From a virus (lineage: Duplodnaviria > Caudoviricetes), in the IMG/VR virus record IMGVR_UViG_3300016265_000590, positions 1 through 35,176 of that record: DNA of 35,176 bases; one strand, 5' to 3'. Below, piece by piece: positions 43 to 32,323 of this stretch. The position numbers and the translations under genes are program-made. The notes below the pieces were generated by a model. The model saw nothing but the letters and a program-made list of their open reading frames with translations, did no database searches and was not told where the DNA came from. The number at the start of each line of letters is the position of its first letter. The first letter of the stretch is position 1.

Positions 43-516
43 ATGGGTAAACGCGGACCAAAACCGCAACCAGCTGCCGTCCGCCGCATGCTTGGCAACC
101 CAGGCAAGCGACCGATTCTGCCAGACCTGCCGGCACCGGCAGGTGCACCGCCGATGCCTAAGCGACTAATGGTTGATGCCGTCGCAGTTGCCAAGTGGCA
201 GGAGCTCGTGCCGATCCTTCTGGGCCTTGGGACTCTTACCACCGCAGACGGCGAGGCTTTGGCGACGCTGTGCGAGGTGCATTCATCCGCTCAGGCATGC
301 CTGCTCGAGCTTCGGGCCACTGGACCCGTGATGCACACTGATCTTGGCGGCGTGAAACCAAATCCGGCTGGCCCGTTATATCGCGGATTAGTGAGCCTCC
401 AGGCTTCCTTAATGGGCGAGTTTGGGCTGACGCCAACCTCTAGGACTCGCCTTGGTGGCAAAGAAGAAAAGCCAGCCGACGAAGTCGAAGAGTTCTTCCG
501 CGTCCACGGTGCGTGA
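43..516 (+). CDS. terS: Terminase small subunit, P27 family
   Basis: MGKRGPKPQP..GNPGKRP N-terminus and NPA...EFGLTPTSR C-terminus typical of P27-family TerS; precedes terL. ATG at 43 preferred over GTG at 10. Confidence 0.9.
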   Translation: MGKRGPKPQPAAVRRMLGNPGKRPILPDLPAPAGAPPMPKRLMVDAVAVAKWQELVPILLGLGTLTTADGEALATLCEVHSSAQACLLELRATGPVMHTDLGGVKPNPAGPLYRGLVSLQASLMGEFGLTPTSRTRLGGKEEKPADEVEEFFRVHGA

Positions 517-2115
517 ACTCTCAGACGACGGCCAGGCCAAGTACAAGCGTGTCGTCTGGTTCTTTGAAAATGTGCTGCGGCACAGCAAGGGCCAGAACGC
601 CGGCAAGCCGTTCAAGCTTCTGCCGTGGCAGCATCATATGCTGCGTGAGCTCTTCGGCCGGCTCAACCCGGACAAGACTCGTCAGCATCGTGTCGGCTAC
701 ATCGAGCTCCCCAAGAAGCAAGGCAAGAGCACGACGCTGGCCGGCTTGGCGTTGTATCTGACGGGCTTTGATGGGGAGCCAGGTGCCGAGTGCTATGGAG
801 CGGCCTGTGACCGTGAGCAGGCAGGCATCATCTACAGGGAAGCTGCCTCAATGGTGCGGGCCTCGCCTGCGTTGTCTCGCTACTTCGACGTAATCGACAG
901 TCGTAAAACAATCATTCACAAGGCAAGCAACTCGTTCTATCGAGTGCTATCAGCCGATGCGTTTCGTGCCGAGGGGCTTAACATCCACGCCCTGCTCTTT
1001 GACGAGCTCCACGCACAGCGTGACCGGCGGCTGTGGGATGCACTGCGGTACGGCGGTGCCGCTCGCCGGCAGCCGCTCCTGCTGTCGATCACGACGGCCG
1101 GCTATGACCGCAAGAGCATCTGCTGGGAGCAGCACCAATACGCTGAGCGGTGCATGGCCGATCCGAGCGTAGACCCGGCTTTCTTTGGCTGCATCTACGC
1201 TGGGCCGCCGGACTGCGGCGCGGACGGCTCGTGGAAAGAGGAGCGGGTATGGCGTATGGCCAATCCGAGCCTGGGTGAGACGATCACTCTGGAGTCGTTC
1301 AAGGCAGATGCCCGTGAGGCCGAGCAGAGCCCAAGCAAGCTCAACTCGTTCTTGAGATACCGGGGTTGTGCCCCTCGGCCTGGCGGCTGGGGGGCGCAAC
1401 CCAAGCACGGCTCAACGTCTGGACTACGCAGGACACCCGTTGGCTCTCGCCTGACTCGTGGGCCAAGTGCGGCAAGCCACTAGACGCTGACCTAGAGAAG
1501 CGTGAGTGGTTCGCTGGCCTCGACTTAGCGAGCACCACCGACCTCTCTGCGTTCGTAATGGTGAGCCAGGCCAGTGACGGCACTTTCGACGTGCTGCCGT
1601 TCTTTTGGGTGCCAGAGACAAACGCAGCCGAGCGGACGCTGCGGGACAAGGTGGATTACCTCGGCTGGATTCGTGACGGCTACATCCGTGCCACTGATGG
1701 CAACGTTACCGACTACGACGTGATCCGGCGAGACATCAACGAGCTCGCCAAGCAATACAACATCCGGCAGGTGGGCATTGACCGCTGGAACGCCACGCAA
1801 CTGGCGACGCAACTGCAAGGCGACGGCATAAACGTCTTAGGGTATGGGCAGGGCTACGCCAGCATGACGAGCCCCTGCCGACAGCTCGAAGCACTCACAT
1901 TGTCTGAGAGGATCAGGCACGCCAATCATCCGGTGCTCAGTTGGATGGCTGCCAACTGTGCCCTGCAAACCGATCATCAGCAGAACTGCAAACTGAGCAA
2001 GGCGAAGAGCACGGAACGCATTGACGGAATGGTGGCGCTAGTGATGGCTCTCGGCATTCACGCCACAGCCACGGCACCGCCACCTGAACAATCCTGGGAC
2101 ATCCTGACGCTATGA
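509..2115 (+). CDS. terL: Terminase large subunit, interrupted by a 47-nt insert (coding segments 509-1363 and 1411-2115, about 519 aa if joined)
   Basis: First frame has Walker A PKKQGKST, Walker B LLFDE and ITTAG. Second frame has nuclease motifs GLDLAS, IDRWNA and RIDG. Removing 1364-1410 gives contiguous NSFLRYR|LNVWTTQ. Confidence 0.9.
1361..1410 (+). other. Hairpin insert in terL flanked by matched CGG codons (candidate translational bypass element)
   Basis: 1363-1380 pairs with 1385-1402 (18 bp, 3 G-U pairs, loop UGGC). CGG at 1361-1363 is in the ATPase frame and CGG at 1408-1410 is in the nuclease frame. Confidence 0.75.
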
Positions 2116-3401
2116 GCGACCTCCTCGCCGATCACCGCATGCTCGAGCTCCGTGGCATCGACTGGCCCGAGGTGAGCAGCAGCCGCACGCCAAGCGGCAT
2201 CCGTGTGACGGCCGACAACTCCATGGCGTGCTCGGCCTACACGGCGTGCATCCGTGTGATCTCAGACGCCGTCTCGTCGCTGCCGCTGCACGTCTACGAG
2301 CGGCTCGCCAACGGCGGGAAGGCCAAGGCCACGAGCCACCCCATCTACCGCCTGCTGCACATGCAGCCGAATCCGTGGCAGACGGCCCAAGAGTTCCGCG
2401 ATTGGATGACCGGCATGTATCTCCACTACGGTGCGAGCTACGCCGAGATTCGCCCCGGTGCTCGTGGTGCAGTCTCTGAGCTGTGGCCGCTGCACTCCAG
2501 CCGGATGACGCCCGAGCGGCTTGAGAACGGCAGCGTTCGGTACAAGTACCGCGAGCCAAGCGGACGCGAGACGATCTACAGCCAGGAGCAGATTTTCTGC
2601 CTGCGGTTCACGACCGAGGACGGCGTGACGCCGGTGCCCACGTACAAGATGTTCCAGAACGTGATCGGGCTGGCCCAAGCAATAGAGACGCACGCCGCCA
2701 CGTACTTCGGCTCAGGGGCACGGCCGGGCGTGATTCTTGAGTCTGAAAATCCAATCCCGGTTGAGGCTGCCGAGCGGCTTCGCGAGTCTTGGGAGCGGAT
2801 GCACCGAGGGCCAGACCGTGCTCACCGCACGGCAGTGCTGCCCAACGGCGTGAAGGCCCACGAGTTGAGCAGCAGCAATGAGGCTGCCCAGATGCTGGAG
2901 AGCCGGGCGTTTTCGGTGATTGAGTGCTGCCGGCTGTTCCGTGTGCCGCCGCACATGATTCAGAGCCTTGAGCGTTCGACGTTCAACAATATCGAAGTGC
3001 AGGGAACGGAGTTTGTGCAGCACTGTCTGATGCCGCACCTTAAGCGTTGGGAAGCTGCCATCTCGCGGGATCTCATCGTTGATGATGAGCGGTACTTTGC
3101 CGAGCACGTTGTGAGCGGTCTGCTCCGTGGCGACCACGCCGCCCGTGCTTCCTATTTCGTGTCGGCCCTGCAGAACGGCTGGATGAGCGTGAACGAGATC
3201 CGCGAGCTTGAAAACCTCAACCCGATTGGGCCAGAAGGCGACAAGCACTTCGTGCAGCTGAACATGACGACGCTGGAGAAGGCAGGCGAAGAGCAGCCAG
3301 CACCAGAGCCAATGCCCGAGCCGCCAGCGGCCGAAGACGAAGACAGCCCAGAAGATGACACCGAAGACCAGGCCGAGGAGGACAGCGCAGATGGAACTTG
3401 A
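2112..3401 (+). CDS. Portal protein, HK97 family
   Basis: PNPWQT, FRVPPHMI, TFNNIE and GWMSVNEIRELEN motifs; follows terL. Confidence 0.95.
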   Translation: MSDLLADHRMLELRGIDWPEVSSSRTPSGIRVTADNSMACSAYTACIRVISDAVSSLPLHVYERLANGGKAKATSHPIYRLLHMQPNPWQTAQEFRDWMTGMYLHYGASYAEIRPGARGAVSELWPLHSSRMTPERLENGSVRYKYREPSGRETIYSQEQIFCLRFTTEDGVTPVPTYKMFQNVIGLAQAIETHAATYFGSGARPGVILESENPIPVEAAERLRESWERMHRGPDRAHRTAVLPNGVKAHELSSSNEAAQMLESRAFSVIECCRLFRVPPHMIQSLERSTFNNIEVQGTEFVQHCLMPHLKRWEAAISRDLIVDDERYFAEHVVSGLLRGDHAARASYFVSALQNGWMSVNEIRELENLNPIGPEGDKHFVQLNMTTLEKAGEEQPAPEPMPEPPAAEDEDSPEDDTEDQAEEDSADGT

Positions 3402-5621: not shown

Positions 5622-5658
5622 GGGCGGGCCGCTCCACACCGGGGCGGCCCGCTCTTTT
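5622..5658 (+). terminator. Intrinsic terminator after major capsid gene
   Basis: 14-bp GC-rich stem (5622-5635 with 5641-5654), loop ACACC, followed by TTTT. Confidence 0.7.
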
Positions 5659-23178: not shown

Positions 23179-23989
23179 ATGGTGCGCCATCGACTGCAAC
23201 CTGGCCACTAAGCCAGAGGTGCTCGAACTCGTGGATGAGACTGGCGATCCGCCAGACGCGGTGATTGGCCGCGTCGTGCAGTTGTGGCTGTGGGCAGCAA
23301 TGAACTCTGAGGACGGCACGGCCCGCATGACAGTGCGACGCCTTGCCAGGCTGATTGGTGGCAGTGACACGTTCTGGGCGGGCGTCCAGCGTGTCGGCTG
23401 GCTCGAGGTGGACGAGGCTACGGGGACTGTGGCGATCCCAGGATGGGAGCGTCGGTTTTCGTCTTCGGCCAAGGCTCGGGTGCAGGCTGCCGTCCGTCAC
23501 GCCAAGGACAGGGAGGTGCGGCGCTCAAGCGCCCAGGGTGAGGGCGCTGATGCGTCGGACCCTGGGCGCACGAGCGCCCCAGAATTAAGAGGAGATGAGA
23601 AGAGAAATTCATCATCCTCCACGCGAGCGACGTGGCAGGAAATCCAGAAGGCATGGGACGCCAGCGGCCTAAAGCCTTGGAAACTGGACCGCCCGCCAAA
23701 GCAGAACGCCCACCTGGCGGACGATCCAGACTGGTGCCGTGACGCCCTGCTCGCCATTGAGCGGCTGCCGAAGTGCCGGTTTTTCAAAACGCCGGCCACG
23801 ATGCTGCAGCTGTTCTCGCCTGGCTTCGTGGACAAGGTGCTGGCCGGCTCGTTTGACGATGCACCAGGCAAGCAATCTGGCCGCGACTTTGCGGACGCAC
23901 CGCCGCCGCCACGGGCATTCACTGGCGACGTAGCCGAAGCGTTTGACCGAACACGTAGAAAACTTGCAGCCGCCAAGGAGGGCACATGA
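23168..23989 (+). CDS. Putative replication initiator / replisome organizer
   Basis: MAGEW....L...PEV and V.LW.WA...VGWL motifs typical of phage replication proteins; AAGGAGG SD. Confidence 0.6.
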   Translation: MAGEWCAIDCNLATKPEVLELVDETGDPPDAVIGRVVQLWLWAAMNSEDGTARMTVRRLARLIGGSDTFWAGVQRVGWLEVDEATGTVAIPGWERRFSSSAKARVQAAVRHAKDREVRRSSAQGEGADASDPGRTSAPELRGDEKRNSSSSTRATWQEIQKAWDASGLKPWKLDRPPKQNAHLADDPDWCRDALLAIERLPKCRFFKTPATMLQLFSPGFVDKVLAGSFDDAPGKQSGRDFADAPPPPRAFTGDVAEAFDRTRRKLAAAKEGT

Positions 23990-26167: not shown

Positions 26168-26196
26168 TTCGCGGAGTAGTTTAGGTGGTGCAGAAC

Positions 26197-26430
26197 ATGA
26201 GCAAGCGCGCTCAAGGCCCACGTTCGAGTCGTGGCTCCGCGATTTCACAGAAGGACAGAGATACTCTTCGCAGGCTGGATCGTGGCATCCATTGGATTGA
26301 CGCACGCTTGGAGTTGTGGGTCGTGTTTTATGATGTCAGCGAGCGAAAGCGGCTCCAAAAGCAACGGGATTCAATGGACGAGCGAAGGCGGCTACTGAGG
26401 CTGCGGATGAAGGGCGTCGGCAAGAAATAG
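26197..26430 (+). CDS. Hypothetical basic protein (cassette 1)
   Basis: AGGTGG SD; stop codon overlaps the R' box of attC 2. Confidence 0.55.
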   Translation: MSKRAQGPRSSRGSAISQKDRDTLRRLDRGIHWIDARLELWVVFYDVSERKRLQKQRDSMDERRRLLRLRMKGVGKK

Positions 26431-27147: not shown

Positions 27148-27546
27148 ATGGCGATCACGTTCACCGTGCCGGGCGATCCCGTGCCGCAGCCGAGGCCGCG
27201 TGTCTCGACTCGCAGTGGCTTCGCTCGTGCGTACGTGCCGAGCAAGCACCCGGTGCACGACTACCGTGCGTCGCTCGCAGCTGCTGCCCGTGACGCCGGG
27301 CTCGGCACGACAGGCGAGCCGCTCAACGTCGTGATTGACGCAGTCTTTGTGCGGCCTAAGTCGCACCTGCGAAAGAGCGGCGTGAGAGCAGACGCCCCGA
27401 GGCTGCCACGGCCCGACGTGGACAACATCGCCAAGGCCGTGCTCGACGCCCTGCAGGACGTGATGGGCGATGACACGCTGGTTGCTCGCTTGGTGGTGGA
27501 AAAGAGCTACGGCACGGAGGCACGGACAACCGTGCGGATCTCGTGA
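27148..27546 (+). CDS. rusA: RusA-like Holliday junction resolvase
   Basis: PGDPVPQPRPR and RPDVDNIAKAVLDAL...DD motifs. Confidence 0.9.
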   Translation: MAITFTVPGDPVPQPRPRVSTRSGFARAYVPSKHPVHDYRASLAAAARDAGLGTTGEPLNVVIDAVFVRPKSHLRKSGVRADAPRLPRPDVDNIAKAVLDALQDVMGDDTLVARLVVEKSYGTEARTTVRIS

Positions 27547-28208
27547 CTGAGCCGCAGTATGCCGTGTTCAAGGACTCTGAGCCGCACCCGCTCGGCTCGA
27601 TGTCATCACATACATACGAAGTGGACGCCAAGCGGCTGACGTTTACTCTGGCCCGTTACAAGTTCGTGGCCCGTGTGCTGGCTGGCTGCGACACGGTGCT
27701 CGAGATTGGCTGCGGCGATGCCTTCGCCACTCGCATCGTTGCCCAGGCGGTTGGGCTCGTCGTTGCCACCGACTTTGATGCAGCCTTCATTGACGAGGCC
27801 CGCAGTAGGCGTCCGCACCATGCAGCGTATGTGCAGCACGACATGGTCGCCGGCCCGAAGTACGTGCCAGACAGGCTGCCCAAGGTGTTCGACGCCGCGT
27901 ACGCCTTGGACGTGCTTGAGCACATCCGGCCCGAGCGAGAAGGTGCGTTTCTTGGCAATGTAGCCATGAGCATCGGCGAGCACGGCACGTTTATCTGCGG
28001 GATGCCGTCTCTTGAGTCGCAGCGGCATGCGTCAGAGCTGAGCCGGGCCGGGCACGTCAACTGCAAGACCGAGGAAGAGTTGCGTGCCACGCTGAAGAGG
28101 TACTTTCGCAACGTGTTTATGTTCGGGATGAACGACGAAGTCGTGCACACCGGATTCGGGCCTATGTGCCACTACCGTCTGGCCGTATGCACGGGGGCCA
28201 AGCTGTGA
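27543..28208 (+). CDS. Class I SAM-dependent methyltransferase
   Basis: ARYKF, VLEIGCGD and LDVLEHI motifs. Confidence 0.85.
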   Translation: MTEPQYAVFKDSEPHPLGSMSSHTYEVDAKRLTFTLARYKFVARVLAGCDTVLEIGCGDAFATRIVAQAVGLVVATDFDAAFIDEARSRRPHHAAYVQHDMVAGPKYVPDRLPKVFDAAYALDVLEHIRPEREGAFLGNVAMSIGEHGTFICGMPSLESQRHASELSRAGHVNCKTEEELRATLKRYFRNVFMFGMNDEVVHTGFGPMCHYRLAVCTGAKL

Positions 28209-28972
28209 GCGTGAGCGTTGTGATCCCGACGCACAACCGTGCGAGCAATCTGGGGCGTGCCGTCGTGTCGGCGGCATCGCAGTCGCCGCTCGAGGTGCTG
28301 GTGATTGACGACGCCAGCACGGATGACACGCAGGGCATCGTTGAGCAGCTGCAGGACATTTACCCGTGCGTGAAGTATCAGCGACGAGACACAAAGGCTT
28401 GTGATTGGCAGCAGTCAGCCTCTGAGTCTTACGCCTGGCTCATGGGCTCGCACGTCATCTGCATGGGTGCCGATGACAAACTCGAGCACGGCGTGATCGA
28501 CAGTGTCGGACGGCATGAGGATGCCGCTGTCGTTTTCCATGACTACTGGGTTTGCGACACCTCTGGGCACGTGACTGGGGCAGTCACCAACGGTTATGAG
28601 GCAGTGATTGAGTTCACGCCACGCCAGATGCGGGCGAGGCTTCGTGAGCACCCGCACGCTACTGAGACTGGCATAGGCTCTGCTATCCGACGCGACAGGC
28701 TTCTGTGGCTAAACAGTCTCGCCTGGTGGCGAATGGGGCCGTGGAGTGACGCTGTCGGGTACGCAGCGGTTGCAGCACTTGGTGGCTGCGTGTTCGTGCC
28801 CGGTGCCGGTGCAACATTCACCGATGATTCAGGCGGCTACGGGCACCAGCACCGCAGCGGCCACCGAGCGAGCGAGTACCACCAAGCCGTGCGGAAGTTT
28901 CTGCATGACGCAGGCGTGCCTTTCAGCGTAGCCAACGCAATCTGCCTGAAACGTGGGGTGCCCTATGGCTAA
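28205..28972 (+). CDS. Glycosyltransferase family 2
   Basis: VSVVIPTHNR, VIDDASTDDT and GADD motifs. Confidence 0.88.
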   Translation: MSVSVVIPTHNRASNLGRAVVSAASQSPLEVLVIDDASTDDTQGIVEQLQDIYPCVKYQRRDTKACDWQQSASESYAWLMGSHVICMGADDKLEHGVIDSVGRHEDAAVVFHDYWVCDTSGHVTGAVTNGYEAVIEFTPRQMRARLREHPHATETGIGSAIRRDRLLWLNSLAWWRMGPWSDAVGYAAVAALGGCVFVPGAGATFTDDSGGYGHQHRSGHRASEYHQAVRKFLHDAGVPFSVANAICLKRGVPYG

Positions 28973-29855
28973 CCTGCCGGCGCAGTTGTGGCTGCCGCAT
29001 CCTGCATTTGCAGAGTTATTCGACGAGCGGCACGCTGCGGGCCTCGAGCGGCTCCGAAACGCATCAGTTGCCATTGTCGGGCTTGCCAGAAACTGCGGCC
29101 CGCAGTTGGCTGCAAATCTGGAGCGTGTCGAATCGCTGGCTGGCCTGTGCGGTTCGTGGCAGTTGCATGTCGAGTCCAACGACTGCACGGATGACACGCT
29201 GGACGTACTGGCGGCATTTGCCAGACGGCACAGCCAAGCCACGTTTCATTACCAGATGCTCAACCGCCCGCACTTGCCGGGCGAGTTTGGCGGCCGTCGC
29301 ACGATTGCGTTGGCTGAATACCGCGACGCCTGCCAGCGTTGGGTGCGAGCCTGCGATGGCGACTCTGACTACGTCGTTGTCATCGACTTCGACGCCTGGG
29401 GCGGCTGGAACCACCAAGGCGTGCTGAACGGGTTCGGGTGGCTGGTTGAGATGCCAGGTGCCTACGGCATGGCGAGCACGTCGCTCTTTCAGTACGACTT
29501 CGGCCAAGGCCCGCAGTGGTGCCATTACGATCTCTGGGCAATGCGTGGGCTCGGCCAGCCCGATTGCTACTTCGACGCCTACCAAAACGGATACGGCGGG
29601 TTCGGCTTCTCGTGGCTGCCGCCTGTCGGCTCGCCGCCTGCGATCGTCGCCAGTGCTTTCGGCGGCATGACGATCTACCGCACCGATGCGTATCTGGCTG
29701 GCACGTACGACGGCACCGCAGACTGCGAGCACGTCCCGTTTCACGCGAGCATTGCCGAGGCAACTGGACAGCATCTGTATCTCAACCCGTCACAACGGAT
29801 GCTCATGAGCTGGATACCGGAGCCATGCGCGGCAACACCGCAACCATCAGCCTGA
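28965..29855 (+). CDS. Glycosyltransferase, CAP59/GT69-like
   Basis: IVGLARNC, ESNDCTDDT, LAEYRD, VIDFD, SAFGG and CEHVPFH..LYLNP motifs. Confidence 0.7.
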   Translation: MANLPAQLWLPHPAFAELFDERHAAGLERLRNASVAIVGLARNCGPQLAANLERVESLAGLCGSWQLHVESNDCTDDTLDVLAAFARRHSQATFHYQMLNRPHLPGEFGGRRTIALAEYRDACQRWVRACDGDSDYVVVIDFDAWGGWNHQGVLNGFGWLVEMPGAYGMASTSLFQYDFGQGPQWCHYDLWAMRGLGQPDCYFDAYQNGYGGFGFSWLPPVGSPPAIVASAFGGMTIYRTDAYLAGTYDGTADCEHVPFHASIAEATGQHLYLNPSQRMLMSWIPEPCAATPQPSA

Positions 29856-31390: not shown

Positions 31391-32323
31391 ATGGCCGGAT
31401 TTGTCCCGCTGTTCGGCTACGACCCTGATCCGGCTGGTGCCGAAGCGTTCGTGGCTTCGCTCGCCAAACCCACGTTGGCTGAAGCCGGGCCTGATCTTGA
31501 GACGGCCAAGCATGACGTGGCCCTGTCGCGGCTGCTGATGAAGTGCATGCCCTCGTGGAAGCGTGGCAGCCAGCCGATTGGCTCATGCGTGGGATGGGGC
31601 ACCGCGATGTCGGTGGACGTTCTGGCCGCCTGCGACATCCTGCTGCGGAATGAGCCGGAAGCGTGGGGTGGCCGCTGCATCGAAGGCGTTGTGTATGGGC
31701 TGAGCAGAGTCGAGGCCCGTGGCCAGAGCGTCAACATGGGCGGCGACGGCAGTACAGGCTTTCATGCCGCCAAGGCCATCAGCAAGTTCGGCACGCTCCA
31801 CTACGGCCAGGACTACGGCGGCAAGCGATTCGACAAGCAACTCAGCGGCACCCAGGAGCGTGAGCTCGGGCGCAACGGGCTACCGGCCAACCTTGAGCCG
31901 CACGCAGCACAGCACAAGGTTTCCGAAGTCACGCTTGTGAAGTCATTCGCTGACGTGGCCAAGGCCATCAGCAATGGGTACCCGGTGTTCCTGTGCTCTA
32001 TGCGTGGCTTCTCCATGACGTTCAAAAAGGATGCCAACTACGGCGGCGGCTGGCTGACGCCGATGGCCACCTGGGCTCACTGCATGATGGCTTGTGATAT
32101 CCGTTGGGATCGCCCGGCGGCGTTGGTGCCAAACAGTTGGGGCGAGTGCTACTCAGGCCCAGTAGACGAGCGGCTGCCAGCACCGTTTCAGCGTTCGTCT
32201 GGCTGGGTTGACGCTGCTGTTATCGACAGCATGTGCAGTGGTGGCGACTCATACGCAGTGGCTGGATTCAACGGTTTCCGGCCATCTCTTATGCCTGAAG
32301 ACTTCCTTGATCAGGTGCTGTGA
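31391..32323 (+). CDS. Papain-like C1 cysteine peptidase
   Basis: Q-PIGS-C-VGW, AH-CM and NSWG catalytic motifs. Confidence 0.8.
   Translation: MAGFVPLFGYDPDPAGAEAFVASLAKPTLAEAGPDLETAKHDVALSRLLMKCMPSWKRGSQPIGSCVGWGTAMSVDVLAACDILLRNEPEAWGGRCIEGVVYGLSRVEARGQSVNMGGDGSTGFHAAKAISKFGTLHYGQDYGGKRFDKQLSGTQERELGRNGLPANLEPHAAQHKVSEVTLVKSFADVAKAISNGYPVFLCSMRGFSMTFKKDANYGGGWLTPMATWAHCMMACDIRWDRPAALVPNSWGECYSGPVDERLPAPFQRSSGWVDAAVIDSMCSGGDSYAVAGFNGFRPSLMPEDFLDQVL

Follow-up and report, generated by a model that had tools for sequence, protein, structure and literature searches.

The window, the whole 35,176-nt stretch of DNA analysed here, is a linear virus genome that is 88% complete. It contains a head module of HK97 type, in which Pfam identifies terS, terL, portal, protease and capsid genes, and a beta-clamp, RecT and an integrase in the window point to a temperate phage of bacteria. 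A host search found no carrier among nine pattern matches in genome contigs and returned no close cultured phage. The terS, portal, protease and capsid genes are all intact. The window carries a single terL, and its frame is broken by an insert (Table 1). Pfam places TerL_ATPase within 509-1480 and TerL_nuclease within 1411-2112. An intact terL homologue matches HK97 TerL (6Z6D) with E = 3e-73.

Table 1 Features of the terL region in the window and the five insertion sites of the hairpin family
Feature	Position	Strand	Remarks
terS	43..516	+	PF05119; intact, upstream of terL
terL, 5' part	509..1363	+	PF03354; ATPase domain and lid; 285 codons from GTG 509 to the take-off codon
Tract of ~48 nt 5' of the gap	1316..1363	+	near-identical in 11/11 site-A carriers, variable in non-carriers
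Proposed take-off codon CGG (Arg285)	1361..1363	+	third base forms the first stem pair; putative role
Stem, 5' arm	1363..1380	+	18 bp; GGT is the codon after take-off; internal CGG at 1376-78
Coding gap (insert)	1364..1410	+	47 nt
Tetraloop UGGC	1381..1384	+	UAAC, UAGC, GAAA, AAAC in sister elements
Stem, 3' arm	1385..1402	+	
A-rich linker	1403..1407	+	unpaired
Proposed landing triplet CGG	1408..1410	+	CGA in one sister element (4 records); putative role
terL, 3' part	1411..2115	+	PF20441; linker and nuclease domain; 234 codons
Stop met when the gap is decoded in frame	1481..1483	+	324-aa product
Portal gene	2112..3401	+	PF04860; intact, downstream of terL
Site A			end of lid helix; 13 records including the window, 9 elements
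Site B			Walker A loop; 4 records
Site C			Walker A loop, codon adjacent to site B; 5 records
Site D			just after the Walker B acids; 9 records
Site E			middle of the helix after Walker B; 50 records, 27 contexts, 24 elements; commonest

The insert in the window

A preliminary description of the locus had proposed that 47 nt between CGG 1361-63 and CGG 1408-10 break the terL frame and that their removal restores the motif seen in homologues, and this is borne out. The nuclease frame restarts at 1411, after the second CGG. Of the 20 removal windows of 47 nt that were tried, only the four with starts at 1361-1364 give back the motif seen in intact homologues, and they do so at an unchanged residue count. 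The spacing of this motif is the same in all 88 homologues that match the pattern (120 examined, 32 outside the pattern). Decoding of the gap in frame gives the ATPase-only ORF of 324 aa ending at 1483 that had been predicted. The codon following the first CGG, GGT, is neither a stop nor avoided, as had been noted; it makes up 54 of 485 Gly codons (11%) in 18 coding stretches of the phage, a figure for phage codon use from which host tRNA supply may differ. Two internal copies of CGG lie within the gap (insert positions 13 and 21), the insert region includes a run of six G, and no stop interrupts the -1 frame between 1279 and the far end of the insert. In the predicted structure of an intact homologue, the insertion point (site A) falls at a helix end where the ATPase-nuclease linker starts.

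The uninterrupted 18-bp stem with a UGGC loop is likewise confirmed. Its 18 pairs (1363-80/1385-1402) give a predicted energy of -45 kcal/mol with z = -5.15, matched by 0 of 200 shuffles, and no uninterrupted stem on either strand of the 35 kb is longer, the runner-up having 14 bp. The earlier claim that the fold is specific to the coding strand does not hold: the opposite strand of the insert folds as well (-38.7, z = -4.27). The coding strand is merely the better folder, and is so in all 46 elements of the family described below as RNA and in 24/24 with DNA parameters.

The insert is present whole in bridging contigs of 8/8 runs examined, from eight studies and including relatives at ~95-96% identity; one run (X1 or X2) may be the window's own source, and X20 contributes one contig at depth 2. 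An assembly artefact is thereby ruled out, and the insert is real and conserved. The contigs of these eight runs, in which rare variants are dropped, contain no 47-nt deletion joint. A search for RNA data sets with the sequence gave none; a single run labelled as RNA, which is probably DNA, has the unskipped form in one contig at depth 2 and is uninformative on splicing. The insert is not among the two terminator-like sites predicted in positions 1-2300, and no Rfam family was matched in the window.

A family of hairpin inserts in terL

Pattern scans of viral and metagenome contigs gave a family of 46 distinct elements in 51 distinct contexts and 81 records, including the window; the record count is not de-duplicated by sample, and the elements are related, so that the counts do not represent independent events. 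All five insertion sites are invariant TerL motifs, and each genome has one insert. Site placement is based on the predicted model of the intact homologue L001 (mean pLDDT 88.6, pTM 0.59). The 80 terL loci nearest to that of the window comprise 74 uninterrupted genes and six carriers (~8%), one with a 47-nt insert at the window's codon that differs at seven positions and five with an in-frame 51-nt site-E insert containing a stop. A further scan of 80 loci, started from a site-C carrier, yielded three site-C inserts, seven site-E inserts and three intein-like interruptions, and no new insertion site. The inserts that had been expected at the same codon in relatives are present, and the stems covary across sites A-D; matched flanking codons are not general.

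A covariance model of sites A-D matched 23 of 47 records, each at a single place that lay in terL, and site E came to light through this search. Site-E elements score just 24-35 bits with this model, so more distant members may be missed. No elements were found in other genes of the 47 records or in portal, terS or protease matches, and 102 non-terL pattern matches gave no candidate for the insert layout outside terL. Carrier alleles would be annotated as split genes.

Elements are 47 (9), 48 (1), 49 (1), 50 (14), 51 (15) or 52 (6) nt long and thus occupy all three frames. A stop is present in each of the 16 in-frame elements, and 28/46 elements contain a stop in the resume frame. Because the lengths cover three frames and the in-frame members have stops, no single frameshift or readthrough event covers the family. 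The terminal triplet, at the landing position, is TGA in the resume frame in 3/27 site-E contexts, which indicates that this triplet is not decoded. Pattern-matching intact homologues (88, 103 and 120 of 120) have no extra residues at sites A-D.

The carrier terL genes look alive, as judged from their coding sequences. The downstream frame is open to the natural C-terminus in 49/51 contexts, the other two ending at the locus edge, and a second terL lesion was found in none of the 51. Between carriers, pN/pS falls in the range 0.20-0.55 both before and after the insert, a divergence that may largely predate the insertions. Synthesis of two separate polypeptides was rejected: TTG 1366, which lies within the stem, is the sole ATG, GTG or TTG of the 3' frame ahead of the first nuclease acid, and a loop stop cuts it off in 5/9 site-A sister elements; at sites B-E the ATPase motifs themselves are split. 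A conserved Gly-Cys-Ala-Pro gap peptide was also rejected, as its Cys codon becomes TGA by a compensatory change at site D and the peptide differs at sites C and E.

What is under selection is an RNA stem held at fixed distances from both junctions. Across 22 elements of sites A-D, 8 of 19 pairs show two-sided changes and 94.6% of cells are paired; this covariation exceeds 500/500 shuffles and all slid controls in a test that is inflated by kinship. The signal at site A alone is weak, with two-sided changes in 2 of 18 pairs and 42/500 shuffles as high. A single stem of 16-25 bp occupies most of the gap. Its loop starts 16-17 nt past the take-off codon in 46/46 elements, and the distance from stem end to resume codon is 7-10 nt in 45/46, despite varying total length and stem reach. 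The exception, L330, has a bulge that the measuring script did not cross; its predicted fold leaves 8 nt. Measured against the stem, the 5' junction lies 1-9 pairs deep and the 3' junction 7-10 nt beyond its end. At sites B-E the stem extends 3-9 nt 5' of the junction and pairs the take-off codon, and the 3' arm changes along with that codon (alignment columns 1-2); in the window, its third base is paired. The take-off codon therefore sits on the stem-loop's 5' side, as in the T4 gene 60 type.

GNRA loops are found in 27 of the 46 elements and UUCG loops in three, both being stable RNA tetraloops according to the accessible part of PMC12550061; the UGGC loop of the window belongs to neither class. 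All 46 elements have a G on both sides of the 5' junction. A occupies 190 of 276 positions (69%) in the six bases before landing, and the 3' gap is AU-rich and free of premature landing triplets, as in T4-type cassettes. By eye, with no count made, the linkers show no constant GAG or GGA that could act as a mini Shine-Dalgarno sequence ~6 nt before landing. In L261 the stem is weakened.

The matching codons reported at take-off and landing in the window (CGG/CGG) are present there and do not form a family rule. The landing triplet matches the take-off codon exactly in 16/46 elements, at two bases in 8/46 and at one base in 22/46. The middle base is kept in 42/46, the mismatches occurring in three site-B elements and one site-C element. 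At site E, the take-off codon TGG faces AGA, CGC or CGA in 22/24 elements, sharing the middle base only. Where there is an exact 3-nt repeat, it is an in-frame codon at 4/4 sites and varies by site (CGG, CCG, CTG, CTG). Codon matching is therefore real but optional, as read from these alignments. The codon after take-off is GGT in 20, GGG in 2, GCT in 22, GCC in 1 and GTC in 1 of the 46 elements, and a stop in none. With partial codon matching and no slow A-site codon, the T4 recipe fails for the family, whereas the geometry fits. If codon matching is dispensable, searches that require matched codons and a stop miss such elements.

Probable movement between terL alleles

The scattered distribution of the cassette suggests that recombination carries it from one terL allele to another. 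On a tree, the site-A inserts require ten state changes for 11 carriers, at least eight of them forced by starred branches, and this is no fewer than with shuffled labels. This is a quick tree of the terL nuclease half with 72 rows, in which L147 and L173 were left out and site-E carriers were labelled free; as terL is mosaic, recombination between domains can add state changes. Relatives of a site-C carrier at 99% amino-acid identity have no insert.

Site-A carriers share near-identical sequence over 48 nt upstream of the gap and only ~5 nt downstream, and 11/11 have AGA at codon -3. This upstream tract fits either short-patch transfer by recombination or a 5' signal. A 5' stem-loop like that of T4 is unsupported: the folding energy at site A is -14.2 in seven carriers versus -12.0 +/- 1.9 in 45 non-carriers, and no consistent stability excess of an upstream hairpin was seen at sites B-D.

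In-frame insertions with a LAGLIDADG domain lie within several codons of sites B and C in three non-carriers and in both of the site-B carriers scanned (2/2); the remaining two site-B carriers have the same N-terminal motif as the LAGLIDADG insertion. By their motifs, these LAGLIDADG-bearing in-frame insertions at Walker A are putative inteins. Their proximity raises the possibility that the hairpin inserts give protection from homing endonucleases or hitchhike with them.

An imperfect repeat at 1330-45/1400-16, earlier suggested as a record of how the insert arose, is present in the window; it is poor evidence of origin because its AAGCA linker occurs in 1/9 site-A elements. Cellular hairpins share a stem core with the inserts, and an origin from REP elements is conceivable. 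The inserts do not themselves fit the MITE or REP type: the linker parts the stem from the repeat, site E lacks a repeat, the inserts are single-copy and the 41 ORFs beside 20 look-alike cellular hairpins include no Y1 (RAYT-type) transposase.

How the gap may be passed

Our comparison suggests that these 47-52-nt hairpin cassettes are probably skipped by programmed translational bypassing, with the hairpin predicted to replace a stop or hungry codon and to measure the landing. Bypassing was the reading first put forward for the window and remains the best explanation, now with comparative support, although the matched-codon picture on which it drew is only partly general. In its favour we count the five-site family, the covarying stems, the intact genes, the three frames and the in-frame members with stops. 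Against it stand the lack of a stop after take-off in 46/46 elements and the GGT codon, which is not avoided in the phage; the site-E landing, which mostly matches at the middle base; and the internal CGG copies of the window, which plain scanning would meet first.

While CGG 1361-63 occupies the P site, the upper part of the stem would enter the A site or obstruct it and so stand in for the stop or hungry codon used in T4 gene 60 and in yeast byps. The peptidyl-tRNA would then detach and the ribosome slide along the message, drawn on as the stem re-forms in its wake from the exiting RNA. Once the stem is fully formed the pull would cease, at a point where the landing triplet occupies the P site and 7-10 nt separate the stem end from the resume codon. 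Renewed pairing with a triplet that matches wholly or in part would help to fix the register, a full match being unneeded, and ribosomes that decode the gap instead would yield the ATPase-only product. One long stem could serve both purposes described for T4, the start of the hop and the proposed drive by exit pairing.

Individual steps have precedents in sources that were accessible in part. Hairpins docked in the A site hinder tRNA binding, with stems 11-12 nt from the P-site codon (PMC7282821). For T4 gene 60, the hop is started by a stem in the A site, pairing of the exiting mRNA is proposed as the driver and 26 nt separate the stem base from the landing site; the events at the mRNA exit are described as perhaps the chief question still to be solved for gene 60 bypassing (bioRxiv 2024.12.09.627546). 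Neither published spacing, 11-12 nt for docking or 26 nt for T4, equals a distance in the family, which counts against the bypassing model. Sliding is processive to ~56 nt (PMC11194080), yeast byps tolerate imperfect landing matches (PMC5009743), and T4-type cassettes show wobble-level landing variation and an AU-rich 3' gap (bioRxiv 10.1101/2022.08.31.505936). The five different upstream peptides speak against a single nascent-peptide signal of the T4 kind.

A bolder version of the bypassing model, conceivable though on balance short of probable, is that the hairpin plus an A-rich spacer forms a portable cassette sufficient for a 47-52-nt hop without a stop, hungry codon or special nascent peptide. 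Landing would be ruler-like, with codon matching optional, and the cassette would have colonised five invariant motifs, spreading between alleles like an RNA-level intein and perhaps shielding these motifs from intein homing endonucleases. The 46 natural variants differ in stem length, loop, codon match and frame while two distances are fixed, so that the exit-pairing driver model could be tested directly with a 50-nt cassette.

The same long, regular stem, selected at the RNA level, would also suit a micro-intron, in which a host or phage nuclease and a ligase cut the hairpin from the mRNA with the stem as recognition element. This is unlikely, even though such an intron needs no codon match and so fits site E, has a G on either side of the 5' junction in 46/46 elements to build on, and would join the introns that are common in phage terL genes according to the accessible parts of the literature. 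A 5' junction 1-9 pairs inside the stem and a 3' junction 7-10 nt outside it are awkward for one enzyme, the exact repeats on codon boundaries at 4/4 sites are not needed for splicing, the terminal triplet is variable with no Rfam match in the window, and the 20 + 12 window proteins scanned include no candidate ligase or splicing nuclease. Of the established classes, group I and II introns were rejected on the missing Rfam match, the variable terminal triplet and the length; 47 nt is far below the size of self-splicing introns. Bulge-helix-bulge splicing was rejected as well: with the motif geometry that we assume, the possible bulges are on the wrong sides and the valid cut sites lie outside them. 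Splicing, if it were the case, would represent a new kind of bacterial micro-intron.

The minority status of carriers (6/80 nearest loci), the 99%-identical relatives without the site-C insert, the integrase in the genome and the weakened stem of L261 could be explained if terL were simply crippled, the inserts hitchhiking in the remains of prophages or in phages that depend on an intact relative for complementation. We consider this very unlikely, given that 51/51 contexts have no second lesion, that compensatory changes have gathered and the junctions are exact, that the window allele or close relatives occur in eight studies, and that the window has intact terS, portal, protease and capsid genes.

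Translation of the gap, made possible by a -1 ribosomal shift or by polymerase slippage on the run of G, would add ~16 residues at the start of the linker, and the in-frame members would then require stop readthrough. The open -1 frame from 1279 through the insert, the six-G run and the placing of site A where a helix gives way to a loop in the modelled intact homologue would allow this in the window taken alone. As an explanation for the family it is highly improbable, because the loop has a stop in the needed frame in 5/9 site-A elements, positions 1340-1420 contain no canonical in-frame X XXY YYZ heptamer and 0/88 intact homologues have extra residues at site A; sister elements would need -1, +1 or readthrough according to length, inside Walker A, after Walker B or in mid-helix.

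A skip during copying, by slipped-strand deletion between the repeats or by RNA polymerase jumping a template hairpin, has hardly any likelihood: slippage could plausibly act on a strong inverted repeat that is accompanied by a direct repeat of 3 nt, and the template strand folds too, but direct repeats are absent at site E, the template strand folds less well (46/46 as RNA, 24/24 with DNA parameters), deleted genomes would be expected to replace carriers, and no 47-nt joint appears in the contigs of the eight runs, from which rare variants drop.

Programmed bypassing, the reading we favour, is established for T4 gene 60 and for the mitochondria of one yeast group, with few further candidates; the accessible part of PMC13461519 lists T4, plaA, Myoviridae homologues and Magnusiomyces. 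We found no description of a terL hairpin-insert family in a search of mainly open-access main texts, in which byps were covered through secondary accounts. The family most likely represents a new form of programmed translational bypassing, with a presumptive mechanism. It would work like T4 gene 60 and byps and yet be a member of neither, having no stop or unused A-site codon, a different host gene and a single copy.

Like T4 gene 60, the inserts form a gap of ~50 nt at invariant residues of an essential phage enzyme, with take-off on the stem's 5' side, an A-rich 3' gap, horizontal spread and, in the window, matched codons. In contrast to T4, there is no stop or hungry codon after take-off, the landing match is often missing, and there are five insertion sites with different upstream peptides. 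The insert stem ends 7-10 nt before the resume codon, whereas the T4 stem base is 26 nt before landing in the accessible text. T4 gene 60-type cassettes occur in a topoisomerase gene with MobA or another free-standing endonuclease; the inserts described here are all in terL, with none seen adjoining.

The byps of Magnusiomyces capitatus and M. clavatus are, as far as the accessible parts of the sources go, also short (27-55 nt, here 47-52 nt), mobile and GC-rich (PMC5009743, PMC13461519, bioRxiv 10.1101/2022.08.31.505936), as well as context-independent, with a relaxed take-off/landing match and an AU-rich 3' part. They differ in having an unused A-site codon, mitochondrial ribosomes and up to 81 copies over 12 genes, whereas the hairpin inserts occur once per genome, in terL only, in a phage of bacteria and with a common codon next.

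The Streptomyces phage phiHau3 likewise has frame-breaking inserts at conserved junctions of its large terminase, and mass spectrometry of a UAA variant in E. coli supports bypassing there, according to the accessible part of PMC10732093. Those inserts are 7-10 nt long with a rare UUA start and signals 5' of the gap, unlike the 47-52-nt hairpins of the present family, which lack a rare A-site codon.

Mosaic TerL, truncated TerL entries and a possibly weakened element

TerL is mosaic in four of the compared loci (L017, L025, L031 and L086). Their ATPase halves are 77-86% identical to that of the window, and their nuclease halves, compared with window positions 1411-2112, show an identity of either ~56% or ~80%. 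Protein clusters also contain truncated TerL entries, of 181 aa (P0124 and P0135) and 324 aa (P0121 and P0123), and one truncated entry occurs on 26 contigs. The lengths of these entries would fit gene calls ending at hairpin inserts at site E (the helix following Walker B) or site A (the end of the lid helix). The site-D element, located after Walker B, in L261 (2518-2570, minus strand) carries a nine-G run and several broken pairs in a genome that is otherwise complete; either the element is a variant that has been weakened, or the sequence contains an error.

Walker A insertions and cellular palindromes

In five loci, TerL contains in-frame insertions of ~330-360 aa directly past the Walker A lysine. 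A LAGLIDADG domain was present in all four of the insertions scanned, and by their motifs the insertions are intein-like. They co-occur with hairpins at site B, in the Walker A loop. Recurrent palindromic repeats in cellular DNA have a stem core in common with the terL elements; these repeats are mostly intergenic and may be where the stem came from.

Loci with Walker A insertions in TerL or palindromic repeats containing the terL stem core
Feature	Locus	Position	Strand
Walker A insertion	L380	475-1554	
Walker A insertion	L398	400-1500	
Walker A insertion	L407		
Walker A insertion	L226	1436-2515	-
Walker A insertion	L242	1436-2515	-
Cellular palindromic repeat	L130, L132, L137, L141, L145, L155, L165, L168 and others		

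Other features of the window

The second longest uninterrupted stem of the window genome (14 bp, 5622-5654) lies at the start of the ORF that follows the capsid gene. The replication initiator gene contains a 23-nt inverted repeat (23517-23581; 87% complementary, 19-nt spacer), possibly part of an origin. At 26169-26243, overlapping an ORF at 26185-26430, ARAGORN predicts a tRNA whose anticodon is unreadable; Rfam gave no match for this segment, and the prediction is probably spurious. A methyltransferase, a family-2 glycosyltransferase and a 300-aa ORF without assignment are clustered at 27543-29855, possibly for modification of DNA or virions. A 310-aa ORF without a family contains a perfect 17-nt direct repeat (31769-31785 and 31958-31974), the copies of which are 189 nt apart and in frame.
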